The notes under the pieces were generated by a model that had not been told where the DNA came from, ran no database searches, and was given only the letters and a program-made list of their open reading frames with translations. A stretch of DNA of 63,994 nt, filler included, from Stramenopiles sp. TOSAG23-2 (Eukaryota): assembly GCA_900128395.1 (NCBI GenBank). It is 3 parts of 3 records of this genome, joined end to end, with 100 filler letters (N's around TTAATTAATTAA, not from the genome) between each part and the next. Parts side by side here need not be neighbours in the genome. Positions count along the whole stretch, not along the records: positions 1 to 31,111 come from LT649377.1; 2 more parts are not named here. One strand, given 5' to 3'. Within the stretch, counting starts at the first letter, position 1, and each line of letters starts with the position of its first letter. Of the stretch, positions 7,291 through 60,732 are shown piece after piece. Made by a program: the position numbers and the translations under genes.

Positions 7291-7850
7291 ATGATTGATC
7301 ATTATGCCGTTTTAGGATTACCAAAATTTACAGCAACACCCAATGAAATTAAAAAATCATTTAGAAAATTAGCAATTAAATGGCATCCAGATAAATGCAA
7401 AGCATCAAATGCAAATGATATTTTTTCAAATATATCAACTGCATATGAAATATTATATGATAAGGATTCTAAACGTAAATACGATCGTGAATTACGTTTA
7501 GCATCAACAATTGCATCTGTAGCATCATGTACTACTACTACGTACAACACCAATACTAGTGATTTTCCAAGACGTCACAAGGATCATCTAGAAGTAATCA
7601 TAGTAATTATACATCATCTTCCGCAGATGAGGATGATGATATGTATTATTCTTCAAGTTCATCGCAAAATTCTTCCCGTGCATCTAGTCGTGCAAGTAGC
7701 TCAAATGCTGGTGAAACTTCACGAGTTGCAAATGCATTTGCAAACGTCTTTGGTGATGGCGATTTTGAAAAAGCAGCTGATCATTGGGATAACATGATGT
7801 ATGTAAATCATCTACCCTGTCTACCTACCTACCCAAACTGTCTATCTATT

Positions 7851-7883
<33 letters not shown>

Positions 7884-8234
7884 ACAACATTATAACTAAC
7901 TTAAAAAACTATAAACAGGGATAAACTATTAGTACCGATGAAAAAACGCAATGCAATTAAAATACAACGAATTTGGCGCGGATATTTAATTCGTAAAAAA
8001 TATAATAGACATATTAAACATATAAAAAAAGTAATTGCTGCTAGAACAAAGTTAAAATTGCATTCCAAAAATAAAAAAGCAAAACACAATATAAATTCAC
8101 GTGGTAGTTCAAATAAAGGTCGGTCCCCACGTGTAAGAAACAATGGTGGTGGAAGGATGATACGAGGCAGTAATGGTGCGGGTGGAAAAAGTCTGGGACA
8201 GCAAAATTCTGCAGTAAATTGGTTTACTCAATGA
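7291..8234 (+). CDS. J-domain (DnaJ) protein with C-terminal IQ motif; intron 7799-7918; unresolved frame change near 7520-7575
   Basis: DHYAVLGL...KLAIKWHPDK...AYEILYD is a J-domain. GTATGT..CTAAC..CAG intron joins ORF 7641 to ORF 7938 in frame. AIKIQRIWRGYLIRK is an IQ motif. Confidence 0.75.
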
Positions 8235-8943
8235 ATGTTATGTACATAATAATAAATTTTAATAAATGTGATAAAAGATAGTATATAAACAGAAGTAAAT
8301 ATTTTATATAATATGTAGTGCTATTTATATGCTAATATATTAAGGAAATGTCATTTAAAACACTTAAATCTAGATTAAACTACATGAGCTCGCCATTGCC
8401 TCCTAGAACCTAGATAGAACCTTATAACTTATAACCCTTATCCACATTTGCACATAGCACACAGCGTTATTTCAGATTTACAGTTTATTATTGCACTATT
8501 ATTACAGTATTTTTACAGAATAGAGTTTATCGATCTAGCACTGGGCACAGAGCACAGAGCGTTAATTAAAAGCTTGCTATAGGTATTAATATCATATAAC
8601 GTTAAAACTACTTTTGCCTTTATTAAATACTACTATATATCCCTACTAAATAACAATATTGATATTAATAGCCTATATCATCATATCAATTATTATTATT
8701 ATCAATAATTGAAATAATGTCAATTCTCAATACTCAATAGAGTATAATAAAATAATAATAATAATAATAATAGTAATAATGTGCTATAATTACATAAATA
8801 AATTGCAATATAAATATGCAATTATTCAGCTTAGATAGTCCAATGTTGTTCCTAAACATAAAAAAATTGAATTACATCTTTTTCGCAGACAGGTGCCAAA
8901 ATTATTAAGAACCCGTCTGAGTATTATTTACAAGATACATATC

Positions 8944-11900
8944 ATGTCCAGCGCAGGCGGAAATCACTCACAAAAGACAAAGGAAATAAATGATAACAAA
9001 GTGGACTCAGATGAGGAAATTGCCATACGGAATATAGCGCAGCCTGATGAGATTACCAATAACACAAATGTATCAGAGCTAAAAAAACAAGTTATAGAAA
9101 GATTGGGTGAAGAAACATTCAACAAAACTGTTGAAAAAGAAAAAAAGGAAATGAATGAGTTAGAGGAATTTGCCATACGGATTATAGCGCAGCCTGGTGA
9201 GATTACCAATTGCATAAATATATCAGGGCTAAAAAAACAAGTTATAAAAAGATTGGGTGAAGAAACATTCAACAAAACTGTTGAAAAAGAAAAAAAGGAT
9301 ATGAAAGAGTCAGAGAAAGAATTTGCCATACGGAATATAGCGCAGCCTGATGAGATTACCAATAACACAAATATGTCAGAGCTAAAAAAACAAGTTATAA
9401 AAAGATTGGGTGAAGAAATATTCAACAAAACTGTTGAAAAAGTGAAATTTGCCATACGAAGTATAGCACAGCCTGGTGAGATTACCAATAATACAAATAT
9501 ATCAAAGCTGAAAAAACAAATTGAAGAAAGATTGGGAGGCGAAGATAAATTCAACATAGCTGTTAAAGATGAAAAAGAGAAAATAAAGAAAATGCAAGAG
9601 AATTTTGCATTTGAAAAATCCAAAATTGTAGGATGGATCAAAAAGTGGTTTCCAAATCACGACCCAAACGAAACGCTATACCCAGATCATGCTAAATACC
9701 TGATCGATCCCGATTTTTATGATTTAGTCAAAAATTTGTCTGGTAAAAGTACCTTGGAAATATTTACAATTTTGAATTCACCAACAGCATTGTCAACACA
9801 GTCAACAGAGAAGGTGAAAAAAACTCGTCTCATAGTCAAAATAATCCAAGAGTTAATTGAAAATCAAAATGAAAATACATGGGAGTTTACGGAAGAGAAA
9901 TCGAAATTAGTAAAATTAGTAAAGATTGTTCCTAATTCAACAAACACTTCAGGAAATGCGCAGGGCGACGAAAATGTAAAGGAAAAAACAGATAATACAG
10001 AAGATACAAGCACTTCTCAAGCAAATCGTTCTGGACAAGATGAAAACAACTCGAATAAGAAATTTGAACCTAATTCAACAAACATTTCAAGAAATGCACA
10101 GGACGACAAAAGTGTCGAGGAGAAAACAGATAATGCAAATGATACAAGTACCTCTCAAACAAACTGTTCTGGAAAAGATGAAAACAACTCGAATAAGAAA
10201 TTTGTCAAATTAGAAGATAGGTTTTTAACCCCAATGGAAGTATATACAAAAGAAGATATTTTTCCATTACCGCAGTATTTAGATTTAACTACGCATAGAC
10301 ATTTGCAGACACGTTATACACGCTTGTGTATTTTAGTCTCAATTTGGTTATTCATGTTTTTGCTGGGATATCTCCACATTCAATTTTCAACCGAATTATA
10401 TCGATATAAAGTACCATATGATCAAGCATTACATATAAAAACGGAAGGTTGTTCAATTAATTTTGCCGAAGAAACTCAAGATGCGTTAACGTTAGAACTC
10501 GAAGAGAACTTTTGGTATTGGTATAATATTGTTAATCCACGCAGTGAAAATAACGACAATGAAAATGGCTCATACATTGATAGATGTAGCAAAAATACAA
10601 CATTACCGTGTTTTAAGATTTTAGTAAATCACGGATCAAATCTATTGAACTCCTATTCTCGAAGATCTACGGGGAAAGGCAAATCTGCAAATGCTTACGC
10701 AAAATATGATAGGTCTAATGGTATTTTAACAGCATTTTCACCGAAACAAATGAATTTTCCGTGTCAAATCCGTTTTATGATAAACACAAAAGATCTTATT
10801 CCAGCATTTAAAGGCCTAACGATTGTTAGCACCGGAGATACAAAAATAACCAAGAAAACATTCACAGCAATATCAAAACGGCAAGTAAACGAGTTTCTTT
10901 TAAAAACTGATTTTCTACATATAAACGGCAGTACAATGGATATCAACCTGCGAAATATACAGACATCATCACTTCGAGTATTTGTAGAACGGGGCCAGGT
11001 GCAAATTCTTGGCTCTAATTTAGGATGGACTGGATTTTATGACCAACGGGCAAAACCATTGGAACATGTGGTTCGAATTGGCAAACCATTAGGAAAAATT
11101 GCTGATGTTGGACAATGGATAGAAGATAAATTAAGTCCCTCCAATTCTTGTGGGCTAACACCATGTGGTGGAAGTATAAAAGTTAGTGTTTTAAATAGCA
11201 TGGTAGTCGATTTTGAAGAGCCAGATGGTGGCGTTTGCATCACAGCACCTGTTATCGATTCATTAAATACAAAAACTTGTAGTAATATGACAAACGATCA
11301 AATAGTGTATCAAAATACAAGCAATACAAGTCATGCAATATGTGGGACAAAAGGGGAAACATTAATATGCACTCGTCAGGATACGAATTGTATAGTAAAT
11401 AACGAAACAACTAGAATAAAACTTCAAACGTTTGATGGCTCAATTTTTATATCATTGCCAGAGTATAATCAAACAGAAACAAAATATTTTAATGTACGGC
11501 GTACCATTGATGGACAAGATTGTATTTTTCCTTTTACGTACAACGGCCAGAAGTATCATGAATGTACATCGGTGCATTTTAAACAACCTTGTAAGTCAAT
11601 GTCTTTATATCATAAAACCTACTATTAAAAATCTTCTCTCTAACATACCAATTGTATTCTACGCGTGTTATAGGGTGTGTTACGTCGCCTAAAGCAATTG
11701 CAGATTCATCAAAAATTGAGGCAGGAGGGTCTGATTTTTGGAATTTTTGTGAACCATACGTAAGTTAAACTTCGATTTCCCTGAAACTAAAAGGAATAGC
11801 TTCCCTAACAACACATCACTCACTACTCCACAGATGATATTTCAAGGACAAGCTTTTTACAATAATTTTAAGGATGGAATGACATTTGATACAGTTGGAA

Positions 11901-14900
11901 CAGAGGCATTGAAATCGATAGTGCCTTTTGAAAATGAAAAACAAGGCTCTCCTGTTGTTGTGCGAATATTATCGGATGGGGTTTCTCCCATAGGACCTAC
12001 TCGTGGTGATATAACGTGGCTATACGCATCTAAAATGCCATACTTAATTATTAATATGGACATGTTGGCAATTGTTAGTTTAGATATGTTGAAACCGAGA
12101 TCAAAAATGATAGAATACTACGTAAAGCCCGGTTTTTGCCCAAAGCAAGCTTTACCAGATGCCACGCTGTCAATGGACGAAGATATGGGGAAAATATCTG
12201 ACGGGATAAAACAATTGATAAATATGTCAAAGGCATCAAATATAGTTTACCGTCATAATGAATTTTCAGGTAGTCCATATTTTTATGACTATGTCGCAAA
12301 AGCATATAGTATTGCCACTGCAACTGATATGACATATGAATTATATGATATATATCTATCTCGCGCTGCAAGGACAACCAGTTATGTTTTATATTTAAGC
12401 ATAGTCCTAGGAATATTGCTAGGGCATTTAATAGGTTATATTTTATTTCGAATGTTTCAACAATTGGAAATAGTATTAGAATTATATTTATTTGAAAGAC
12501 GAAAATTAAACAAATTAAAGTTAGCTAATAAGAAAAAACAAACTGAACAGGAAGAGGATGATGACAGTAAGGGTGGTAGTAAAAAAATATCTGTTACAAG
12601 ACTAGCTAAACAAAAGCCAAGAAGAATAAATTTGTAAGTATATTAATCTTAATCATTTCTTATTTAAAATCACAATTTTAGAACAAAACAAGTACTAACC
12701 AATTATTTAATATATTGTATCTTTAGATATGAATTGATAGACATTGCTGGGATATTTATAACTCCTACTTTAGTAGATTCTATAAGAGAATTCATGGAAG
12801 AAAAAACGGTGTATCGCGGGGGACCTCAGACGGACTTTATAGCTTCACTTCCCTTTTATAAACGATTTTATTACAAATTGAAAGTATATGCAGACAATGG
12901 AGTTTATAAATGGCGATCTTCAAAGTTATCTTATCCCGAACATCAAAACACGACATATTCTGACAAAACCGAAACATCATATGGAGATTTTAAAATTGCA
13001 TATGAAGAGTATTGTTCTGTGAGTGGTTATGAAGTTGTAGATCTGTTGTCTCCAGAAATGAAAGAGCGATTGGAAATCGAATTTGGGGTAAAAGTGAAAG
13101 AAAGTGTAAAAAGGAAAGAAATGCAAGGAGAAGGTAGAGAATGGACATTTGACAATGTAATCTTGAAAGACTTTAACAATGTCAAAGACGTAGATGACGA
13201 AGATGAGTGGGTAGAGCATGTAGGAAAGATAATCCTTCATCAAGAAGAACAAATTCGTAAAAAGAACAACGATACCGAAGAAAAGAAAGCGTGTACAGAA
13301 CTAGACATATTTCTAAAAGAGGGTAAGAAGGAAATTAAGTTTACAACGAAAGAATTGGACAACAAAACAATCAATTTGAATATCAAGAAAATGGATTTCT
13401 TTAAGAAGACATCCAATCAAGTGAAAACAAAAATAAATGCAAATATCATTAAAGCTCCTACAAAAAACGCAATGAAATGGTTAAAAAGATCAATGATTGA
13501 AATCATTATTGTATCATCACACCAATTATTCATCGTAACCGTTTCAGGAGCAATTATGTATTTAATACTTTATTTTCAAACCCGAGAATCAGAACTATAT
13601 AATACTAACCTTGCAACCGAGGACGATTTTCGATATCGGCCGGGGTTCATCGTTTATGGCGAAAAGTTCATCCATCCTTCATATTTGCCATGGTTTTTTT
13701 TCTCTATATGCTTTTTCATGTTAGGTCAAATTGATTTAATTTTTTATTATTATTATGGTGGTACACCTGCACCTTGGTCTAGATATCAAACCATTTTAAC
13801 ACTTGAAAATAAAGTTGAAAAGAACAGAATTTTGAATGTGTTAGGATGGCATGCAAATGTTAAAGAGCTTACATCAAAAAAGACTACAGAGAAAGAGGAA
13901 AAATGGTTTTGCGATAATTGTCATAATTTGCTTCATGTTGGTACATATACAGGAAGGAACATTGGAAGGAAAGATTGTAGTTTCAGGCATATGTGCCCAT
14001 CTACTATATTATGGCTTTTTTCATGTTGGTGTGATAAAATAAGCCCTGGGCAATTTTGTAGTGTAGAATGTCGTGATCAATACAGTATTTTATTTAAGAG
14101 TAAAACTGTATGTCCATGCTATCGTACACCAACGCAACTGCGATTTCATTGTTACATGCCGGAGGATAAAGAACATGACAAAAACGAGGATAACGAAAAG
14201 AAGGAAACTAAAAAAGATGACAAAAGAAATGTTTTACGTTTCTTTTGTCATCTTTGTAAAGAAAAGAAGGAAACTAAAAAAGATGACGAAAGAAACGTAA
14301 ACCGTTTTGAAATTACTGACAATAATGAAAAGAAGGAAACTGAAAAAGATGACAAAAGAAACGTAAAACGTTTTGAAATTACTGACTTCCAAAAGGAAAA
14401 AAAATACAATGAATTCAAAGACTATATGAAAAAGACAAGCAAAATAAATCAAAAAGTATCATTACAAGTTCGCCGGCATTGGTTGCGCCTATTATGGAAT
14501 GGATTTCGTACAATTCTTCGCCTACTTTTTATTTCTGCATTTTTTTGGATGATCTCAATGTTTTTATCTTACATTATTACGGTAATGTTGTGGTGGATAT
14601 TAGGTTCCGTTTTAAGCCCGGAGAGAATTTTACCGGTCACATCGTCTACAATAACGTTTGTGACATATTGTATTGCAACTTCAAAAAAATTGTGGAATTC
14701 TAGAAAAATTGTGAAGTTAAAAATATTAGAAGTTATTGATAAAAAAATTGATCAAAAGCTAGAAGAAGCTTCTCGAAAATTTAATGAAGATAACCCTCAT
14801 CTTACTTCTGGATTTGGTGAATTTCAAAGTATAGATGAAGAGGTTTTTATGAAAATTATGCTCCCAGTAATGTTGTCGTATCATAAAGAAAATGTTAAAA

Positions 14901-16144
14901 TATTATTACAAAAAAAATGGACTGAAATGTCAAGTGATGGAACCATTGTATTAAGCGACTTAATGAAAGTTACTTGGTTTGATATCGAAGTTATTGATAA
15001 AAAAATTGACCAAAAGCTAGAAGAAGCTTCTCGAAAATTTAATGAAGATAAAATAGATGAAAAGGTTTTTATGGAAATTATGCTCCCAGTAATGTTGTCG
15101 TATCATAAAGAAAATGGAAATGATAACGAAGACTGGGTTCTTAAAATATTATTACAAAAAAAATGGACTGAAATGTCAAGTGATGGAACCATTGTATTAA
15201 GCGACTTAATGAAAGTTACTTGGTTTGATATCGAAGTTATTGATAAAAAAATTGACCAAAAGCTAGAAGAAGCTTCTCGAAAATTTAATGAAGATAAAAT
15301 AGATGAAAAGGTTTTTATGGAAATTATGCTCCCAGTAATGTTGTCGTATCATAAAGAAAATGGAAATGATAACGAAGACTGGGTTCTTAAAATATTATTA
15401 CAAAAAAAATGGACTGAAATGTCAAGTGATGGAACCATTGTATTAAGCGACTTAATGAAAGTTACTTGGTTTGATATCGAAGATTTATTTGAATATAAGT
15501 TTAAAAATGCAGATCCCCCTCAAAAAAAAGAAGATCCCATAAAACCTAGTTTCAAAGCCCATAAACCCATTAAACCCACAAAACCCAGTTTCAAAGCCCG
15601 TGCCATCGTAAATAAACTACGCGATGCTTTTCAAATGAAAATGAAAAGTGAAGCAGTAGATAATATTTATCAAAGATTGTTTATCAATATATCAGGAGAT
15701 CACGATGGACATTTAGAATTTAAACATTTTAAAAAGATATTTTTAGAACATTTAGGTATTCAACTAAGCGACGAAAGGTTGTTAGATCTGTTTTCAGCAT
15801 TCGATTCGGATGGAAGTCAAAAAATTGATTATAGTGAATTTAAAGATGCAGTTAATTCTCTTCAAGTACGGATGGTTGGTATTGCACTTGAAATGGTGGG
15901 ATTATCACATGATCAATTGATTAGATTATTGGTTTTTGGTTGTATCTATTTGTTTTTCGTTTTAATATTTTTATTATTAGGTATATTTAGTTTTACAGAA
16001 GGTGACTTATTTGGTTGTACAATACAATCTATACTACCAATGGCAGCGGGGGGATTACGTTTTAAAAGTGTCAATGCGGGTGATAAATTCAAAAACATGC
16101 GCATAGAATGGTTAATCGATCAAGTGTTTAAATTAATTTCGTAA
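8944..16144 (+). CDS. ~2316-aa multi-pass membrane protein: N-terminal repeats, ectodomain with fibronectin type II domain, Cys-rich segment, EF-hand pair; 4 exons (8944-11590, 11674-11759, 11834-12633, 12727-16144)
   Basis: Three GTAAGT...CTAAC...AG introns join in frame (6951 nt = 2317 codons). Splicing yields CIFPFTYNGQKYHECTS...PWCVT...FWNFC (FN2 pattern). DSDGSQKIDYSE is an EF-hand; several hydrophobic helices. Start codon uncertain. Confidence 0.8.
9013..9590 (+). repeat. Four ~50-codon coding repeats (AIRNIAQPDEITNNTNxSELKKQVIxRLGEETFNKTVEKEK)
   Basis: Visible in DNA and protein; the copies are diverged and in frame. Confidence 0.9.
14729..15478 (+). repeat. Three in-frame coding repeats of 82-86 codons
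   Basis: Units start at 14729, 14987 and 15233. Units 2 and 3 (246 nt) look identical; unit 1 differs by in-frame indels. Confidence 0.9.
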
Positions 16145-16717
16145 AAATTGTAGTGTTCGAGACCTGGAGACCTGGGGGTAAAAAAGGTGCGCACCACTAT
16201 ATTGGTGGTTTGGTGTGTGTAAAAGGACACGAAATACGAAATATTCATTACGAACAATTTTTGACGCGGTCAAAAGTGTTTCATAGTATTATGCCAGGCA
16301 TGTATCACATATGAGTTTATATTTTTACTCAGCACGGGAAGTATTGTACGCTCCTCGTAAAAATTTATTATTTAAAAAAAAAATATTTTAAAAAAACTTT
16401 AGATTTTAACTACGATCGTATCATATTTTCTTTAAAAATTTTAATAAAAAGGAAAAAAAAGAATTAATGTACTATTATGTCCGATATTATAAATATTCGT
16501 ATATATTCGTGGCTAATTTTTTACTTTAATTCTTTTATATACTCGTACTTTTAATTTTTTAAAACACACTATTTTTGCTACGAACCTCGTATTTTTTTTT
16601 GATGCACCCAAAAATGTATTGGTTATTGAAGAATGTGATGGTGTTAAAAAATCTAAATGTCCCACTCCACCCACACCAAACAAAAATATTCAAATTACAA
16701 CCAACTCACATCACACG

Positions 16718-18655
16718 TCACGCGTTATTTGTATCATTATCATGTTTATGGTGTTCTTTTATTTCCCTTCTCGCATGCATTAACCACGTCGAGCTAAAAC
16801 TAACAAATTCCATTGTTCGCATAACTAATGTCAATGCTTCGTTTATTTCTTTCTCTTCAATATCAAAAGGTTCAGATTCTTGACGTGATAATTTTAAGGT
16901 TGGTAAGATACCATCCATTGATATCCATGGATCATTCATAATATCTTCACTAGTAAGACGTTTTGAAATATTTCTTTCCAATATTTTTTTCAAAAATTGT
17001 TGCAAACCAATTGATATGGTAGGTGCATTTTCAAAATTAAATAATATAGGTTTTGTTTTAATATTATGTTCTAATTCATCATATGTCTTCCCAGTAAATG
17101 GTGGTCGTCCCATGACAGTTAAGTACAAGGAGACACCAAATGACCATACATCACCAAGACCTTGTTGTTTTAAAAGCAAAGATGATACACGTATACGTTG
17201 TCGCGTTTTTGATCCTTGGTTATTACTACTACTATGACTACTACTACTACTATCAGTCTTGTTTTCTGTCGTATTATACGTACTACCGTTCTTTCCGTTG
17301 TTATTAGAAATCAAATCATCATCATCCTCTTCACCATCACTATCGTTGTCAGTTGTTAAATGTCCATCATTCAATTCCATATCAATATCCTTGGACGAAA
17401 CACTTAATGATCGTACCGATGCTCGCATTGATTCAGGGCTGAAACTTTCTGGTGGTCGAAATAATGGTGTTCCTACTAATGGTTCATGTACGAAACTTTC
17501 TAAATCTTCCAAATTTTCATTATCATCAGCAAATATATGTGCTACACCAAAATCAGCTAATTTTGCACCACCATGGCCAACATTAGATGTTGACATTAAG
17601 ATATTTGATGGTTTGATATCTCGATGTACAACATTATGCGTATGCATGTATAACATTGCAAGTGCAATATCACGATAAATAACACGTACAGTCTCTTCGC
17701 TTAATGGTGTTAATTTCTCATTACTTTCGCCTTCTTTCCAATCTGGTAATAATGCACCAGATGGTAAATATTCCATAACAATGTATAATTTATCTTGATC
17801 TGGGTCATCTAATACATCAATAACATTTACAATATTTTCATGCTCTAAACGTTTTAATACTGCAATTTCTTTTGCTATTTTTCCAGTTGCATATCCATAT
17901 TTACCAATCTTTCTTTTGATCTTATCATGCGTTTTTGGTGAATCTAACATTGCTTTATGACGCTTACGACGTCTTAAAATACTTTTTTTTTTTACAATTT
18001 TCATTGCATAAAAATTACATGTTGGTACTTTTGTTATTTTGTTATTGTTGTCATTATTATTATTACTACCATTTGATGATAATGATTTACCTTTGTTTTT
18101 CTTTGCTGACGTAGGATATTTTAAATTCATATATGTTTTATATTCTTCTTTAATTGCACATTTATGAACAACTGCTTGTGAACCATGTCCTAATTCTTCT
18201 AATATAACATATTTTCCAACATGTTCTAATTTAGATATTGATTGTTTTCGTTGTGGATTTGATTGTATTGATGTGTTGTTGTTGTTGTTAACGTTATTAC
18301 TATTACTGGTTGTTGAAGAATCTTTTGTCTCTTTGTTATTTGGTGTTGTTGGGATGGTAGGTGTTGTTGTCGCTACTGCTGCATTAGTATTATTATTATC
18401 ATTAATATTATTGTTATTGCTTTTCTTGTTATTTGTATTTGTTGGTAATATATTAACTGTATTTGATATTTCATCTTGCATTTTGTTGTACGATGAACTA
18501 CGTTGACGAAACGATGTTTTTGGCGATGATTTCTTGCTCTTGTTATTAGTAGTACCACCATTTCCATTACTATTACTATTATTATTATTATCATCCTCTT
18601 CTTTTAATTCTTTCATAGCTTGTGAATTATTAGTTGGACAACATACATTTCCCAT
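16718..18655 (-). CDS. Ser/Thr kinase, CAMKK-like, with N-terminal acylation motif
   Basis: LGHGSQAVV, AMK, EIAVLKRLEHENIV..VLDDPDQDKLYIVMEY, HRDIKPSN, DFG, GTPLFRPPE, DVWSFGV; starts MGNVCC. Confidence 0.9.
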   Translation of the reverse strand: MGNVCCPTNNSQAMKELKEEDDNNNNSNSNGNGGTTNNKSKKSSPKTSFRQRSSSYNKMQDEISNTVNILPTNTNNKKSNNNNINDNNNTNAAVATTTPTIPTTPNNKETKDSSTTSNSNNVNNNNNTSIQSNPQRKQSISKLEHVGKYVILEELGHGSQAVVHKCAIKEEYKTYMNLKYPTSAKKNKGKSLSSNGSNNNNDNNNKITKVPTCNFYAMKIVKKKSILRRRKRHKAMLDSPKTHDKIKRKIGKYGYATGKIAKEIAVLKRLEHENIVNVIDVLDDPDQDKLYIVMEYLPSGALLPDWKEGESNEKLTPLSEETVRVIYRDIALAMLYMHTHNVVHRDIKPSNILMSTSNVGHGGAKLADFGVAHIFADDNENLEDLESFVHEPLVGTPLFRPPESFSPESMRASVRSLSVSSKDIDMELNDGHLTTDNDSDGEEDDDDLISNNNGKNGSTYNTTENKTDSSSSSHSSSNNQGSKTRQRIRVSSLLLKQQGLGDVWSFGVSLYLTVMGRPPFTGKTYDELEHNIKTKPILFNFENAPTISIGLQQFLKKILERNISKRLTSEDIMNDPWISMDGILPTLKLSRQESEPFDIEEKEINEALTLVMRTMEFVSFSSTWLMHARREIKEHHKHDNDTNNA

Positions 18656-19380
18656 GATGATAGGAATGGATAGATAATAAAAAAATTGTAATAATATTAT
18701 TATCTTCTGTATTATATGTATGATTATATTATTATTATCTTATCGTGGTTATATATATATATATATATGTATATTTTACTACGAACATATATATATATAT
18801 ATATATATATATGAAACGTGGTGAGGTGCTAAGAAGTATATTTTGTTTTGTCCTCTCATCTATTTCCTTTCTAATATCTAATATATTTTATTAAAATGTA
18901 TGAGGAGAGTATCTTTTTTTTTTATTAATTAATTCTTCAACAACAACCTTCTTCTTCTCGCCCGTCTTCTTTGAGTCTTACTATACCATTTTACATCCTA
19001 TCTATCTATGCTGTGACGAAGTTATTGTAACATATGTGTATTGTACTTGCACAAAATAGCATAGGAATAGAATGTAAATCAAATGTAACCTTTTTTTTCT
19101 AATTTTTATCAAGTTAAAATATGGCTTCTTACTATACTATTTTCCATCCTATCTACAATCCTGTGTTAGTACTATTAAAAACCTGTTCACTGTACTTACA
19201 GTTACCCTATCCCTATCCGCAGACAACCCTATCCCGAACCCGACGAAGTGCCCAGAAAGTATAGGAGAAAATTGTTTGATAATTATGCTGAAATAGGCTT
19301 GAAAATATTTATATGATAGGACTTGTTAGAGTACGATTTGTGATGATCCACCAAATTAAGCATGGGCAAGATCTCTATAC

Positions 19381-19638: not shown

Positions 19639-20102
19639 CTCAGCAGACTCATTCTTTTAATAAAAAAAAGTAGGGGACCGATATATTTCTTATTCTTACA
19701 TAGATGACTCGAGTATCATACATTCATACGGTATATATGAATATATCAAATATACATACTCGATGCATCAAAATCAATTATCATTAAATGAAATAAAAAA
19801 GTAATTAAAAATTACAAACAAAAGAATAGGAACATTAGGACTCAAAGCTTACATATTGTATGTTTCTCGTTGTCGTAATTTTTAATAAGACTAAACTCTT
19901 TCCACCATTTTTATAGATAGATATATTTATTCTCGGTGTATAAGTTTTAGTGTGTGTGTGTGTTTGTTTGTTTCTTTTTTTGTTTTTTGGTTTGTTTTTT
20001 TTTCTTTTCTGTAAGAAATTAGCAATTATTTTTATTGGGATTATTATAAACCAATAAGAAAACATTGTAGAATATTAAAACCAACATCCTCAAAAGAAAC
20101 AG

Positions 20103-23100
20103 ATGAAAATACGCTTCGCTCCACAAACACGGGGCAGGATGACATTAAGCAAATCAAACATGATAAAATACATTATATGTATCATGGTATTATTGATAAT
20201 CAATTCACTTAATACTACATATGGACGTTCTTTTCAATCAACCACGATACAACATAATAATAAAAATGATAAATTATTATCAACAAATAGTAATAGTCGT
20301 CGTATTAATAGTCAAAAAACATTATTACGTAGTAATCAGAAAAAAATATTACAACAGCAAGAGGCCAATGCAAACAATCCAATCAGTACAATGCCAAGCG
20401 ATGCAAATGAGAACGATAACACTAAATTTAATCATGGCGTAAAAAACAATAATGTCCCTTCCAGTGTACAGGATCATACGCAAAAGAATCCAGTAACCGA
20501 ACCTCGACGTGTTTTTCCAAATAATATACGTCCTTTAAATAGTGCTGTTGAAGATACAGCAGCACCTGTCACCCCGACCAAAGATCTTCCCGTTTTTCCA
20601 CCAGAGGAAGGTCCGGTATCTTTACGTATTACACGGCGGGATAGTACTTCCATTACGTTGGCATGGGATGCACCACCTGGCAAGTTACCAACTTTGTATA
20701 ATTTATTAATGGATCGTGTCTCCGTCTATTCTGGATCACAAAAAAGTTATTCACAAACTGGGCTTACGGCGGAGAAATGCTACGTGTTTCAAGTCGCTGC
20801 CTATGTTGATGGGAGATGGACACGTTTTACCAAACCAAAATATACATCAAGTTTGGAGAACGATGTGGAAGTAGAAAAATTAGATGAGCAAAATGCCGAG
20901 TTGCGTAATATATTGGAAAAACAAGCACTTGCAAAAGTGCAAGGAAATGCATGTTTATTAGAAACAGTGACAAATGCAAATGTTATCTATGGGGATCATG
21001 CAAGTGGTGGTGGTTCCGTTGAATACAATGCCGAAGTAGCAGATACGTCTATTACGGGTGTAGAAGCATCCGTATTGAATTGTCAAGTTAGTAAATGTTT
21101 ACAAAACAATGGGTTAACGACTACTCTTATAAAACCACGGCAAGGTCATTTAAAATTACGTTTGGATGATGCATCCTATAAATTACGATTTTTAAGTATT
21201 CCGGAAAATTCGCATATATTGGAATTTAACAGCCCATACAATGCCTTTACAAAATCAACCATTAATTTACTTGGATGCCGTGCAAATGAATTGGATGAAG
21301 AAAATCAACAGCGTATTGGTAAAACGGGCGTTGCTGCAAGGAAATGTTTAATGTTAAATTGCACTAGGGAATATAAATTGTATTATTTCTGTGAACCTGG
21401 TGAAGGACCGCCAACACCAGGATATTATGGAATTGATGCATGGAGGCATGATATCAATCGTGCCTCGTATCCAAACCATCGTTTCAATCGATTTGAAGCG
21501 ACGATGAAAGCGACGATATCACCAAAATTGACACCATATTCCGTAGATGAAAAAACAAATAAACAAGTGGATTACAATATGTATTCCCATCGAGGATATC
21601 GAGAACCATTTTATCTATCATTTTTAACACGCTTAGTACGAATCGATGCAACGCCTCATTTTCCCCAATTACTTGGTACTTTCCGTTGTTTAGATTTGCC
21701 AGTAAAATTTAGAGCATCACCAAAACAAGCTAAGGAAGGATTGCAAGATGGAATTTTACCACCATTTCAAGTCACTGGCAGTACCGTATCAACTATTAGT
21801 CAAATGAAAACTGACGGCGATGCATTTTCATCCCTGTACATGGGAACAATTACGGAAGCTATATCGACTGATTTAGAAGCTTATTTAGATGGTTTTAAAG
21901 GATTTGCCATAGATAATGAATGGGTACGTGGTATAACGTTTCAATTAATTCATGGACTTGGTGTTGGTAACCACGCATATGGTTTGCACCACAATGATTT
22001 ATTAACAATGTCAAATATACGATTGAAACAATATCCACGCGAAGCGAAAGGTGTTCGTAAATATTGGTGTTATAAATTAAATGATTTAGTATTGAGTGGT
22101 GATGGTTGTGGTAATCCTACTAGTAAAGTAGATATTCCATCTTATAATGGAGATCCAAAAGAAAAAGCAACAAGTCATGAACAATCAAAAAGTAGTGGTG
22201 ATGGAAGTGGAAGTGGTGATGGCAGCGGCGAGAAAGCGAAAGGGAAAAACAATGCTGCAACTTCCTTTTTAGAAACAAGTATTTTTGAAATGCATGGTTT
22301 GAATGAACCAAATCGTATAGTCGTGGATCCTGATAAGCCACCGCCAAAATCAGCAGCAGAAATTGCCATGTTAAATATCCAACATCGATGTGTTGGTGGT
22401 GTTGTGAAGACAGTGCCGGCAGATGAATTACCATCCAATGTATGTAGTTCAGGGGATAAAGTTGATAAAGGAGATGGTAAAGTAGATCCTGATAAGAATA
22501 GGAGAAAAGGTATTGGTAGTTCTAGTGTAGCAAACACGGATCAGCAACCGCCTACTCCAGCTGAGGCACCGCAGAATAAAATGGGAGAAATTGATCCAAC
22601 CGATCCATCTGCATCTGATACTAAAATACGAACTTCATGGTGTATACCTGCAGATTCCGTAGATGGCATGCAAGTAAAATTACATAATTTTGGCACTGCC
22701 GTATTGAAAAAGAAAAACATTGAATTTTGGAAAAAAGGATATACGTTCCCAAATTTACCATGGAATGACGATTTAACGGATGTAGCAATAGTATTATGTG
22801 GATACGTAGCATCCCACATGGCAACATTTGATTTGCGTGGACGTGATTTATGTACAAAAATGAAAAATGGATATTACCAAGAAAATCCATTACATGCACT
22901 TCGACATCCATATTTTGATGATTATTTAACAAAAGAGCAAATGCCTTTAGCAGAGCGCAACAATTATATATATACACCAAAACCAGGGTGTGATTGTGAC
23001 AAAAAGAAAAAAGCACGTTATGCATTACCAGGTAATGATGCCAATAAAAAAGCGGGACGAGAACATTTTGAAGATGGTCTTAAATTGAAGATGGACAAGG

Positions 23101-23531
23101 TCATGCCATCGAAAATTGCTTCTAAAAAATCACGGCAACAATATATGGCTGCCGGTCATACACCATTACGTATTAAATTGATGAATTTAACAAAGCCTGG
23201 TGGGGAAAGTCCTTTGACACCATGGATTGTTGAAAAGCGAGGTGCAAAATTAGATGTTAGTGTTCTAGTTGAATGGAAGCCTTATAAAGGCTCTAAATAC
23301 TACAATTTATTATTAGATGGTGTATCCGTTTACTCTGGTCCTAAAACGGTATTTCAATTGAATAATTTACGAGAAACTAAATGTTATCGTATTGCAGTTG
23401 CTGCATTTGTACAAGATAAAAAGAAAGATTTAAATGGTAAAAATAAAGATGGTGGTAAAGATATAGGACATTGGACGCCACCAAGTCATAGTTTGCATAT
23501 TAACAGTTGTGGTTTGAGGAGTGATGCGTGA
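20103..23531 (+). CDS. Putative secreted FN3 / atypical (pseudo)kinase / FN3 protein
   Basis: Hydrophobic leader from Met 20160. Two FN3-like domains (SITLAWDAP..YNLLMD..VYSG..YVFQVAA; VEWKP..YNLLLD..VYSG..YRIAVAA). Kinase-like TPHFPQLLG, FQLIHGL, HHNDLLTMSNI, VKLHNFG. Confidence 0.7.
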   Translation: MKIRFAPQTRGRMTLSKSNMIKYIICIMVLLIINSLNTTYGRSFQSTTIQHNNKNDKLLSTNSNSRRINSQKTLLRSNQKKILQQQEANANNPISTMPSDANENDNTKFNHGVKNNNVPSSVQDHTQKNPVTEPRRVFPNNIRPLNSAVEDTAAPVTPTKDLPVFPPEEGPVSLRITRRDSTSITLAWDAPPGKLPTLYNLLMDRVSVYSGSQKSYSQTGLTAEKCYVFQVAAYVDGRWTRFTKPKYTSSLENDVEVEKLDEQNAELRNILEKQALAKVQGNACLLETVTNANVIYGDHASGGGSVEYNAEVADTSITGVEASVLNCQVSKCLQNNGLTTTLIKPRQGHLKLRLDDASYKLRFLSIPENSHILEFNSPYNAFTKSTINLLGCRANELDEENQQRIGKTGVAARKCLMLNCTREYKLYYFCEPGEGPPTPGYYGIDAWRHDINRASYPNHRFNRFEATMKATISPKLTPYSVDEKTNKQVDYNMYSHRGYREPFYLSFLTRLVRIDATPHFPQLLGTFRCLDLPVKFRASPKQAKEGLQDGILPPFQVTGSTVSTISQMKTDGDAFSSLYMGTITEAISTDLEAYLDGFKGFAIDNEWVRGITFQLIHGLGVGNHAYGLHHNDLLTMSNIRLKQYPREAKGVRKYWCYKLNDLVLSGDGCGNPTSKVDIPSYNGDPKEKATSHEQSKSSGDGSGSGDGSGEKAKGKNNAATSFLETSIFEMHGLNEPNRIVVDPDKPPPKSAAEIAMLNIQHRCVGGVVKTVPADELPSNVCSSGDKVDKGDGKVDPDKNRRKGIGSSSVANTDQQPPTPAEAPQNKMGEIDPTDPSASDTKIRTSWCIPADSVDGMQVKLHNFGTAVLKKKNIEFWKKGYTFPNLPWNDDLTDVAIVLCGYVASHMATFDLRGRDLCTKMKNGYYQENPLHALRHPYFDDYLTKEQMPLAERNNYIYTPKPGCDCDKKKKARYALPGNDANKKAGREHFEDGLKLKMDKVMPSKIASKKSRQQYMAAGHTPLRIKLMNLTKPGGESPLTPWIVEKRGAKLDVSVLVEWKPYKGSKYYNLLLDGVSVYSGPKTVFQLNNLRETKCYRIAVAAFVQDKKKDLNGKNKDGGKDIGHWTPPSHSLHINSCGLRSDA

Positions 23532-27880: not shown

Positions 27881-29608
<1,728 letters not shown>

Positions 29609-57943: not shown

Positions 57944-58201
57944 CTCTTGCTTTTTTTTTAATATTATATATGTGTGTGTGACTTATTCTGCTATATACAT
58001 TGTATTTTCCTATATATATCTTTCTTCTATTTTTTCATGTTTTTGTTGTTGTTTCAGCGTTCACAAAAGCTCATCAAAAAAATGAATGACTCACACAAAC
58101 CATGTAGAGACTAATCAAGAGAAATAGAAATATAGTTTGGAACAAATACATACATATATATATATATATACACAACAACAATCATTTTAAATAATAATAA
58201 C

Positions 58202-59353
58202 ATGGTTAATAACAATTCGCAATGGAGAAATCCACGTGGTTTGATATATGGATTGTTATCAGTAGCACTTGGACAAATATTCATTATAATTCCATATTAT
58301 TATTTATTACGTAAAGAATATATTCAACGTCCATTTATACAAAAAAAAAATAAGAAGAAGCAAGATAAAAATGATGATAGTAATAATAATAAAACATTCT
58401 TTGAGGAAATGAAGAATCATTTGTTTCAACCCGAAGGATTCTTTTTATTAGGTACATATTTATCAGTATCATGGATATTTAATTTCATGCCTGATACATA
58501 TTATAATTTAGAAGAACCAGTTAATTTGTTACATGTATTATTACAGTTATTAGTCGTTGATTTTTTTCAAACAATAATGCATTTCGGGGAACATTACATT
58601 GCAAACTTTTATATTAAAAGTCATAAACCACATCATGTCTTCAAATCGCCGCGTCTATTTGATGCGTTTGATGGCTCGTTCATGGATACGATTTGCATGA
58701 TTTTAATTCCATTATACATAACAGCAAATATTGTACACACCAACATGTGGAGTTATGCTTTATTTGGTACAATTTATGGTAATTATTTATGTTTGATTCA
58801 TAGTGAATATTCACATATATTTGATCCCATCTTTCGTTTTATAGGAGTTGGTACTGCTGGAGATCATCATGTGCATCATAAATTATTTAAATATAATTAT
58901 GGACATTTATTTATGATATGGGATCGTTTTCTATTTCGTACATATAAATCACCATTGGAATTGAAGAAACATTTCAATGTTTCAGAATTAAAAATAAAAG
59001 AACGAGATATTTTCATTTTATTAAATTTCTTTGTTGGAATCATCTGTTTTCCAATATTAAGTATGAGAGTCTATCAAAATGCACAAAAAAGGAATGGACA
59101 TAATAATGTTTTAAACAGTGGTAGCAGCAGGAAATATACGAATTTCATGCCAAGATTAACGGATACAAAACAAGTTGCTGAACTTGGTATATTATTTGTT
59201 ATTATTATTTATTTACTTGGATTTAGTGGTATGATGGTAGCGTTTGAAGAAGAAGAAGAGAAAATGATGGAGGTAAAAGATAATAATACGAAGAAAGACT
59301 TGTTGATTCATAAGAAGAAGGAGGGCAATAATGGGAAGATGAAGAAGATTTAA
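58202..59353 (+). CDS. Fatty acid hydroxylase / sterol desaturase superfamily
   Basis: His boxes HFGEH, HKPHH, LIHSE, HHVHH, then NYGHLFMIWDRF. Confidence 0.9.
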   Translation: MVNNNSQWRNPRGLIYGLLSVALGQIFIIIPYYYLLRKEYIQRPFIQKKNKKKQDKNDDSNNNKTFFEEMKNHLFQPEGFFLLGTYLSVSWIFNFMPDTYYNLEEPVNLLHVLLQLLVVDFFQTIMHFGEHYIANFYIKSHKPHHVFKSPRLFDAFDGSFMDTICMILIPLYITANIVHTNMWSYALFGTIYGNYLCLIHSEYSHIFDPIFRFIGVGTAGDHHVHHKLFKYNYGHLFMIWDRFLFRTYKSPLELKKHFNVSELKIKERDIFILLNFFVGIICFPILSMRVYQNAQKRNGHNNVLNSGSSRKYTNFMPRLTDTKQVAELGILFVIIIYLLGFSGMMVAFEEEEEKMMEVKDNNTKKDLLIHKKKEGNNGKMKKI

Positions 59354-59500: not shown

Positions 59501-60732
59501 TCACTTCTTTTTACTTTGATTACTTTTCGTACTGCTTGATCGCGTCTTCTTCTTCTTCTTGATATTATTCACTTTCTCCATCATTTTATTGTTGTTGTTA
59601 TTATTATTCGACTTCTTATTATACCTTGCTCCATCATCATATGGTTTATATGTACCCATTAATACATCCCAATACATGAAATATTGTGCATAGTTATTAT
59701 ACCTTGCTCCATCATCATATGGTTTATATGTACCCATTAATACATCCCAATACATGAAATATTGTGCATAGTTTGATTTTGGATTTCGATGATGCATTTC
59801 ATGTGCAGCAACGGAATATTCAAATCCAAAACCATAAAATTTAACATCATACGGTGTATGATTTAATATCGCTAACAATGCATATATATTAAAATAGATA
59901 AACATGGAAACAATATGTATCGTTGTTACATATGAAATTAAACGAATTGCAAGAAATACACAACCTAATCCAATTAATTGTTCCAATGGATGTTCATTGC
60001 CTGCATCTAAATACCCACGTTCTGGTAATGGTTGTCGATGATGATGTTTATGTATCCATGGATATATCGGACCCCAATGCATGAAACGATGTGAGATGGC
60101 ATAAAAAAAATCATCTGCTAAAAACAATAAATAAAATGAAAGGAATGTATTTATTATATTCATTTCATCCATTGATTTAATAATATATTTATCATTTAAA
60201 ACAAAGACACATAAATGATGTACAAATATTGTTTCAACAAATGAATTAGCAAATAAAAATAAATAATCAATGATTTGCAATGCTTCCAAACCTTTTGCTC
60301 GTTTATTATTTTCCCTATATTTTAATTTCTTCGTATTCCGTATAAAACACAATACAATAGATTCTAATATACCTAAACCAATTGCTTTCATAATATATAA
60401 TCCAACCCATATATGTAGCTTTAATTGAAATGGATTAAATAAATATGGCAACGTATTTACATTAGATAATTGCAACGTTAATAACATTGCGATCGGCCAT
60501 ATTAATGCTTTGATTGGCTTGATATGATGTTTTTGTTTGGGTGGTATGTAAATTGGTAAGATATAATTTGTAATGATCATCGTATCGGCCATATTAATGC
60601 TTTGATTGGCTTGATATGATGTTTTTGTTTGGGTGGTATGTAAATTGGTAAGATATAATTTGTAATGATCATCGTACTTGCAAGTATGATACATGTTGCT
60701 GGTATATTTTTTATATTACTGGATATGTCCAT
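59501..60732 (-). CDS. Fatty acid hydroxylase / sterol desaturase superfamily; true start probably 60732 once a 92-nt duplication is removed
   Basis: His boxes HRFMH, HKHHH, LNH, HEMHH, then NYAQYFMYWD. Collapsing 60492-60675 gives MDISSNIKNIPATCIILASTMIITNY... in frame. Confidence 0.88.
59616..59771. repeat. Exact 78-nt in-frame tandem duplication
   Basis: 59616-59693 is identical to 59694-59771 (NYAQYFMYWDVLMGTYKPYDDGARYN twice). Confidence 0.9.
60492..60675. repeat. Exact 92-nt tandem duplication (frameshifting; probable artefact)
   Basis: 60492-60583 is identical to 60584-60675. Confidence 0.9.

Follow-up and report, generated by a model that had tools for sequence, protein, structure and literature searches.

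The DNA at positions 8944 to 16144 (plus strand) of a 63,994-nt stretch from the genome of Stramenopiles sp. TOSAG23-2 is a genuine gene: it has four exons, is expressed and encodes a 2316-amino-acid (aa) polytopic membrane protein of a marine protist. The whole stretch is called the window here; all positions count along it, and features given without a strand lie on the plus strand. By sequence comparison, the protein belongs to a large, widespread and uncharacterized eukaryotic family. In the alignments, the family-defining parts are a membrane-proximal ectodomain block (block A) followed by the transmembrane (TM) helix TM2 and a conserved cytosolic domain, then the helices TM3 and TM4, then a TM hairpin (H1) whose turn carries a polar Asn/Pro/acidic motif, and finally a pair of EF-hands that one helix connects to another hairpin (H2) of similar motif.

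Gene structure and transcription

The gene was delimited by open reading frame (ORF) search, translation and reading of splice sites, in a window that is AT-rich (G+C about 30%) and reads as eukaryotic with the standard code. Three stop-free ORFs lie at 8839–11628, 11753–12637 and 12668–16144. An earlier note on this DNA had proposed that these three ORFs and an unannotated 86-nt exon are spliced into one frame of about 2316 aa. When the exons 8944–11590, 11674–11759, 11834–12633 and 12727–16144 were joined by script, the product was 6951 nt, that is, exactly 2316 codons and one terminal stop, and all of the joints occur in spliced contigs. The frame has its first ATG at 8944; the sequence upstream of it is AT-rich with stops in frame. 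Exon 1 (8944–11590) encodes residues 1–882 plus one base and holds the start ATG, a cytosolic repeat region, TM1 and the larger part of the ectodomain, with the donor GTAAGT following directly at 11591. Intron 1 (11591–11673, 83 nt, GT..AG, phase 1) leads to exon 2 (11674–11759, 86 nt), which has AG before it and GTAAGT after it, and intron 2 (11760–11833, 74 nt, GT..AG, phase 0) to exon 3 (11834–12633), which encodes residues 912–1177 plus two bases and carries block A, TM2 and a charged linker. The exon 3 acceptor at 11834 has a CTAAC-type branch site, a pyrimidine tract and CAG upstream, and the donor GTAAGT follows 12633. After intron 3 (12634–12726, 93 nt, GT..AG, phase 2), exon 4 (12727–16144; residues 1178–2316 and the stop) is preceded by TACTAAC...TTTAG.

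The stretch was present in small shares in 22 listed sequencing runs from nine studies, all marine or aquatic, and 14 of these runs are recorded as RNA. Contigs were mapped from four runs of four studies (those cited here are X1, X2, X3 and X7), and the gene was partly covered in all four mapped runs, two of which are oligo-dT libraries. All three introns were seen as GT..AG skips in spliced contigs: the joint 11590>11674 in one X1 contig (86 letters on the shorter side), the joint 11759>11834 in one X1 contig (72 letters) and the joint 12633>12727 in one contig of the oligo-dT RNA run X7 (55 letters). X1 is of guessed library type, although splicing in its contigs already points to RNA. Separate transcripts for the ORFs, named in the earlier note as a finding that would speak against a single gene, were not shown by the mapped RNA, and the spliced contigs join the ORFs. 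Use of an alternative in-frame AG in intron 3 (12679–12680, acceptor at 12681) was not seen in the mapped RNA contigs. Positions 8700–9213 were covered by no mapped contig of the four runs, and hence the 5′ end and the start codon are predictions from the DNA sequence.

Variant contigs provided 40 tabulated differences, 31 of them coding (14 synonymous and 17 nonsynonymous); the synonymous share exceeds the expectation for random substitution, though this is weak evidence. One variant, X3 record 19, has an in-frame 21-nt insertion at 12527, in the charged linker after TM2, together with 12 other differences, and probably comes from a related strain. Just 3′ of the stop codon, at 16153–16400, the summed depth of X7 contigs was 158 vs 0–5 over the gene, and most of the 108 X7 contigs mapped were only 90–95% alike. 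An Rfam scan of 7800–17000 gave nothing credible and no RNA family at 16153–16400; the deep coverage there may reflect low-complexity A/T sequence or a repeated element.

A widespread family

A HMMER search with exon 4 against 1.84 billion representative sequences recovered 453 proteins at a threshold of E ≤ 1e-3; 97 of them remain at E ≤ 1e-10 and 8 at E ≤ 1e-30. The 150 matches listed were compared locally with the spliced protein, and 147 were re-found, of which 112 cover the EF-hand pair and H2, 25 have H1, and 21 have H1 together with the C block. Twelve of the listed matches are near-identical fragments of this very gene; 21 are plain multi-EF-hand proteins and were excluded from the family. 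Among 23 large homologues compared by BLASTP, the C block was matched in 22, H1 in 16 and block A in 7, without any change of order. Members are about 1000–5600 aa long and have three colinear blocks in common, which this protein shares along with the two hairpin motifs. Most of the difference in size falls between H1 and the EF-hand pair, a cytosolic stretch that varies widely between members and in one of them (P0035, below) holds short helical-looking repeats. The parts most widely in common, in the exon 4 search and the local comparisons, are the EF-hand pair with H2, followed by H1. As read from the alignment rows, the hairpins keep polar and helix-breaking residues, Asn and Pro in the turn motifs, often with an adjacent acidic residue.

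Organism names were attached to 10 of 30 looked-up clusters and belong to seven protist species from different supergroups: Rhodelphis marinus (EP00736_P000306; P0021, 3628 aa), Chromosphaera perkinsii (EP01135_P000548 and P002615; two paralogues, P0022 and P0091), Platysulcus tardus (three proteins, P0035, P0083 and P0048), Mantamonas plastica (P0160), Roombia truncata (P0028), Protocruzia adherens (P0164) and Euplotes crassus (CAI2386020.1, UniRef100_A0AAD1Y7V4, “EF-hand domain-containing protein”; P0087). In the last of these the match is confined to the EF-plus-H2 block. Most of the named homologues have block A with TM2, the juxtamembrane domain, TM3/4, H1, the EF-hand pair and H2 in identical order, with 20–37% identity to this protein within blocks. 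Unlike it, they have neither a fibronectin type II (FN2) insert at this position nor the FCS-like Cys/His segment described below, and between H1 and the EF-hands they carry helical repeats of a different sequence that can extend to thousands of residues. The closest relatives among the matches listed, P0011 and P0012, are ORFs of about 550 aa with 36–37% identity. There are also compact proteins (P0067, P0086, P0116, P0126 and P0057; ORFs or fragments of 287–530 aa) that comprise only the unit “hairpin, EF pair, hairpin”, at least one of which is a truncated isoform of a 1387-aa protein. A search with one family alignment, A1, gave three matches, without names. Two others, A2 and A3, which set a short window piece against homologues of 3000–5600 aa, were overstretched and were dropped for folding, with only the long-row consensus used.

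Comparison with known families and folds

Pfam scans of 25 homologues (17 at E ≤ 0.001 and 8 at E ≤ 0.01) returned EF-hand-type families alone, with one extra sub-threshold match in one of the 8, and 5 of the 17 had no Pfam family whatsoever. In 89 members of A1 scanned at E ≤ 1, the 25 most frequent families were of EF-hand type, apart from sub-threshold matches of a compositional kind. Such were DUF2207_C (13 of 89, best E 0.0043) and Phage_holin_3_6 (7 of 89), both below their cut-offs and read as TM/Gly-rich composition. Ion_trans, PKD_channel, MCU, Orai and other cation-channel families had no match in the window pieces at E ≤ 0.1 and none in the 17 or the 8 homologues at their respective thresholds, and they do not appear among the 25 families found most often in the 89 members. 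A profile search of PDB sequences found EF-hand proteins alone, and the ESM Atlas gave only EF-hand clusters (0.75–0.76) or no usable match.

The earlier note had proposed fold searches with models of the C-terminal TM/EF region and the ectodomain. With the C-terminal model, Foldseek had no match at E ≤ 1e-3, the best being centrin and calmodulin, in searches filled by EF-hand matches and with a modelled four-helix TM part that is too simple for a clear comparison and leaves TM3/4 outside. With the exon 3 model, there was no PDB match at E ≤ 0.001 (best E 0.1, probability 0.09), and a wide fold search matched the long helix alone.

The only descriptive labels on homologues were “EF-hand domain-containing protein”, “Ca2+-binding EF-hand superfamily protein”, “hypothetical protein” and an automatic “CcdA”. 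The last, in full “cytochrome c biogenesis protein CcdA”, is a JGI label on P0157 and P0158 (3088–3180 aa) that was not reproduced: no CcdA/DsbD model of NCBIfam matched P0157, the cluster representative P0020, P0140 or exon 4 at E ≤ 10, and none of Pfam matched P0157 at E ≤ 0.01. It is probably an automatic mis-annotation. Literature text searches, four motif strings included, found no description of the family, as judged by titles and the beginnings of abstracts. Within reach of these searches of Pfam, NCBIfam, PDB sequences and folds, the ESM Atlas and the literature, the protein is outside known kinds, and as the earlier note had anticipated no characterized family accounts for it, since Pfam, PDB sequence and fold searches give only EF-hands, FN2 or, for exon 3, long helices. 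The same note had presented it as an undescribed system; this holds insofar as no description was found, but not for a lone protein, given the 453 proteins and seven named species above.

Domain organization and topology

Hydropathy marks strong TM segments at residues 461–479, 1096–1114, 1437–1463, 1498–1516, 1777–1795 and 2246–2264, and in the AlphaFold model each of the last two is followed by an amphipathic partner helix in a tight hairpin, making eight membrane helices in total. The order of parts described in the earlier note was borne out by hydropathy, AlphaFold, Pfam and the repeat finder. Its appeal to N-glycosylation sites as a sign of the ectodomain was not: 20 of the 35 N-x-S/T sequons fall in the predicted cytosolic N-terminus and, with the majority there, sequons are no evidence for an ectodomain. 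We infer a topology with a cytosolic N-terminus, an outside or lumenal FN2-bearing Cys-rich domain, and the Cys/His segment, repeats and EF-hands again in the cytosol. This arrangement is self-consistent in having the disulfide-type domain outside and the zinc-type and EF-hand modules inside.

The predicted cytosolic N-terminal region (8944–10323, residues 1–460) contains charged tandem repeats and has no Pfam family above cut-off. Tandem Repeats Finder located a 150-nt unit in 2.8 copies at 9013–9442 and a 138-nt unit in 2.0 copies at 9931–10204. P0004, a near-identical protein of 755 aa from another assembly, aligns to residues 1–110, 200–355 and 374–883, and the number of N-terminal repeats appears polymorphic because this alignment skips parts of the repeat region. 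TM1 (10324–10380, residues 461–479) has a Kyte-Doolittle 19-residue mean of 2.31.

The ectodomain (10381–12385, residues 480–1095, 616 residues) extends from TM1 to TM2 across exons 1–3 and holds 16 of the protein's 38 Cys. A homologue search with it found solely its own cluster, P0004. The FN2 domain (11521–11750) is split by intron 1, with Cys860 and Cys874 in exon 1 and Cys884 and Cys908 in exon 2. At the end of exon 1, Pfam fn2 (PF00040) scores 27.4 bits (26.0 on the whole ORF) vs a cut-off of 22.2, over profile positions 1–19 of 42. Exon 2 alone, at 28 aa, is too short for Pfam scoring (0 families), and the second half of the domain was read from the spliced translation, where Trp precedes Cys884 and W-x-F precedes Cys908, completing the four-Cys pattern with its Trp residues. 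Since exon 2 supplies the remaining two Cys and both Trp, the FN2 domain exists only in the spliced product. PF00040 is found in fibronectin, gelatinases, the mannose-receptor family and seminal plasma proteins. As in those proteins, the domain here is a four-Cys module with an aromatic core, and presumably its spacing from third to fourth Cys is longer than typical. Unlike them, it is one module of about 50 residues in a 2316-aa polytopic protein the remainder of which is unrelated.

In a trimmed alignment with nine relatives, eight of which cover this stretch, the FN2 domain is inserted between a conserved G-x-I-Y/F strand and block A, and it is missing at that position in all eight. The Rhodelphis protein has an FN2-like half motif at a different site in its ectodomain. 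On this alignment FN2 is an insert of this lineage and not family-defining, so that the coupling of an FN2 ectodomain to EF-hands, which the earlier note had put foremost, does not define the family. Block A itself (about residues 921–1095) is conserved across the family; in its alignments W973 and C1013 are nearly invariant and P1014 is invariant. The AlphaFold model of exon 3 (10-row alignment, mean predicted local distance difference test score [pLDDT] 74) has an alpha/beta fold and a long TM2 helix at model residues 176–243, within which lies TM2 (12386–12442, residues 1096–1114, hydropathy 2.18), aligned with the TM of the homologues.

Directly after TM2, the conserved cytosolic juxtamembrane domain (12728–13501, residues 1179–1436) aligns with 10 homologues and has no Pfam family. 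The match begins at the first residues of exon 4, so homologues align across the exon 3/4 joint. TM3, a short outside loop and TM4 follow at 13502–13741, with helices at residues 1437–1463 and 1498–1516 by hydropathy. An 11-sequence alignment has conserved polar positions there, namely His/Gln in TM3, Asp in the loop and Glu/Asp at the end of TM4. The predicted cytosolic Cys/His-rich segment (13910–14257, residues 1573–1688) carries the pattern C-x2-C ... F-C-S-x2-C-R, in common with FCS-type and FCS-like zinc fingers (PF04570). It differs from zf-FLZ in a far sub-threshold score (11.6 bits vs a cut-off of 23.4, E 0.19, 9 residues matched) and a much longer spacer between the Cys pairs, and metal binding is putative. 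The earlier note was right that the segment is present, but it is not a general part of the layout, as the pattern is common to P0011 and P0012 alone and absent from the 10 distant homologues aligned. A Lys/Glu-rich tandem repeat (66-nt unit, 3 copies) lies at 14190–14386.

The C-terminal part was modelled by AlphaFold over residues 1738–2316 (89-row alignment, mean pLDDT 74.3, predicted template modelling score 0.50), with the hairpins and the EF-hand pair at pLDDT 75–97. Hairpin H1 (TM5/TM6; 14510–14704, residues about 1773–1837) has the turn motif W-x-I-L-G-[AS]-V-L-[NS]-P-x3-L-P and is modelled as helices 2–70 and 72–129 with block pLDDT 79–94. The helical repeats after it (14741–15493) are three 82-aa units, two of them 100% identical in DNA, each with a near-canonical EF-like loop, modelled as helix, short strand, helix at pLDDT 51–76; Pfam has no match to the repeats or to their EF-like loops. 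Tandem Repeats Finder gives a 246-nt unit at 14895–15482 in 2.4 copies, 100% identical. One X2 RNA contig joins 15239 back to 14895 inside this repeat, and the copy number may be strain-variable or may have been collapsed or expanded in assembly. The EF-hand pair (15677–15862, residues 2162–2223) scores 31.7–32.9 bits against EF-hand_7 (PF13499; cut-off 30) and 29.7–32.4 against EF-hand_1 (PF00036; cut-off 25.4), and loop 2 is canonical by sequence, with D, D, S and E at positions 1, 3, 5 and 12. A single helix joins the pair to hairpin H2 (TM7/TM8; 15908–16093, residues about 2239–2300), modelled as helices 502–530 and 535–563 at pLDDT 75–90. The family motif of H2 is G-x2-F-G-A-V-[IV]-N-S-x-L-P, and its core in this protein reads F-G-C-T-I-Q-S-I-L-P. 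Basic residues flank both hairpins on either side, which fits both ends of each being in the cytosol.

Proposed function and alternatives

A Ca2+-coupled membrane system, as the earlier note had suggested, is a reasonable reading of sequence and model, given that the EF-hand pair and a conserved TM hairpin are joined directly. The adhesion or prey sensing and the channel role also suggested there are putative. The best-conserved parts of the family are the polar TM hairpins and the EF-hand pair, which points to a Ca2+-regulated intramembrane function. Tentatively, and with not quite half of our confidence, we prefer the view that the TM core serves conductance or transport, modulated by cytosolic Ca2+ through the EF-hand pair, with the ectodomain and TM2 providing coupling. 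The conserved polar residues of TM3, TM4, H1 and H2 would form a membrane-embedded channel- or transporter-like site, which Ca2+ bound to the EF-hands just before TM7 would modulate. A second modulating input may come from ligand contact at the ectodomain, through block A and TM2. Of the lineage additions, the FN2 insert would add binding specificity and the FCS-like zinc segment would offer a cytosolic interaction site.

Polycystin-2, plant TPC1 and MCU with MICU are channels under Ca2+ control, with EF-hands of their own or with EF-hand proteins as partners. They resemble this protein, as functional analogues only, in having an EF-hand module beside pore-type TM helices, and its short acidic or polar turns at the outer membrane face resemble the placement of the selectivity filter in 2-TM hairpin channels. 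The protein differs from them in its eight TMs, its order of parts and the lack of any Pfam or fold match.

Several observations weigh against parts of this account. At the level of the gene, every junction was seen in a single contig from a single run, the RNA status of X1 being a guess, and unspliced contigs coexist over intron 1 (X7 record 25), intron 2 (X3 record 18) and intron 3 (X3 record 19), which may represent pre-mRNA, DNA carry-over or a related strain. At the level of the protein, Pfam and PDB sequence and fold searches detected no similarity to a known channel, transporter or receptor; the alignments of block A and the cytosolic domain comprise about 10 sequences; EF loop 1 is degenerate, with Ser at position 1 and His at position 12; and TM6 and TM8 are only weakly hydrophobic and come from the AlphaFold model. 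The ectodomain could face a lumen rather than the cell exterior. The resemblance of the H1 and H2 motifs is a hint of an old internal duplication, but their similarity is not significant (hhalign P 0.033, probability 1.5%). A two-copy model of P0011 residues 250–552 (score 0.00, alignment unused, fold uncertain) counts neither for nor against.

An alternative explanation could be a structural or adhesive anchor, in which an ectodomain partner such as matrix, scale, substrate or prey surface is linked to the cortex or cytoskeleton through the repeats, while the hairpins merely hold the membrane and the EF-hands tune scaffold stiffness or binding with Ca2+. We regard this as possible though rather unlikely. 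It would suit the finding that in other members most of the 3000–5600 residues sit between H1 and the EF-hand pair, the repeats on both cytosolic stretches of this protein, the role of FN2 domains elsewhere as binding modules and the failure to find a transport-type fold. It does not account for the repeats being the least conserved parts, with a number that varies even between near-identical assemblies, whereas the TM hairpins with their polar motifs are the best conserved, which is unexpected for pure anchors; nor does it fit well with the lack of FN2 at this position in the eight relatives of the trimmed alignment. An endomembrane protein, with the Cys-rich domain in the lumen of the endoplasmic reticulum, vacuole or an extrusive organelle and a role in store Ca2+ handling or organelle tethering, is in our view unlikely. 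FN2 is typically extracellular, which argues for the surface, but there is no cleavable signal peptide, and a 460-residue cytosolic N-terminus before TM1 fits a signal-anchor of any secretory-pathway membrane. The very different lifestyles of family members are also consistent with an internal location. On the other side, no retention motif was noticed, although no search aimed at it was made. This explanation differs from a surface Ca2+-regulated channel or transporter in location alone, and the core mechanism could be the same.

The unspliced contigs over all three introns might instead be taken to mean that the ORFs belong to separate genes, or to an assembly chimera, with an accidental long frame, and the 100% identity of the 246-nt repeat over 2.4 copies, with the contig joining 15239 to 14895, allows for mis-assembly of the copy number. 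Such an artefact is very improbable, as three spliced GT..AG joints preserve the frame, FN2 is complete only after splicing, and seven named species have the blocks in identical order in single proteins that align across the exon 3/4 joint. Beyond the preferred Ca2+-regulated conductance or transport lies a bolder proposal that we consider doubtful: the family could be an ancient class of giant receptor-channels spread over several supergroups, in which the two related polar hairpins would make a new kind of pore, gated from inside by the EF-hands and from outside by the juxtamembrane ectodomain, with lineage inserts (here FN2) tuning the sensing of, for example, prey, particles or substrate.

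Other features of the window

Convergent with the gene, a 673-aa ORF at 16718–18739 (minus strand) has a protein kinase domain (E 9.2e-44). About 4 kb downstream of the gene, a 1150-aa ORF at 20079–23531 (plus strand) contains a fibronectin type III domain (Pfam E 5.6e-07) and is a candidate surface protein. An intron-less beta-tubulin gene at 28063–29466 (minus strand) shares 99% identity with a JGI metagenome cluster (1419 member sequences) and, among named matches, 95–96% with Phytophthora, which hints weakly at a stramenopile. Two convergent ORFs, at 58136–59353 (plus strand) and 59501–60715 (minus strand), have a fatty acid hydroxylase/sterol desaturase-type domain (E 6.8e-14 and 8.7e-17) and, by sequence, look like a paralogue pair.

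Implications

A single 86-nt exon had concealed a 2316-aa gene behind three ORF calls, which is a lesson for annotation. If the proposed function is true, protists of at least six major lineages, heterotrophic and other, would have in common a very large Ca2+-coupled membrane machine for which there is no Pfam model, no solved relative and no literature found. The “hairpin, EF pair, hairpin” unit is small enough for expression, electrophysiology and cryo-electron microscopy. For marine ecology, the protein would be a candidate surface sensor of an uncultured flagellate, transcribed in many ocean metatranscriptomes.

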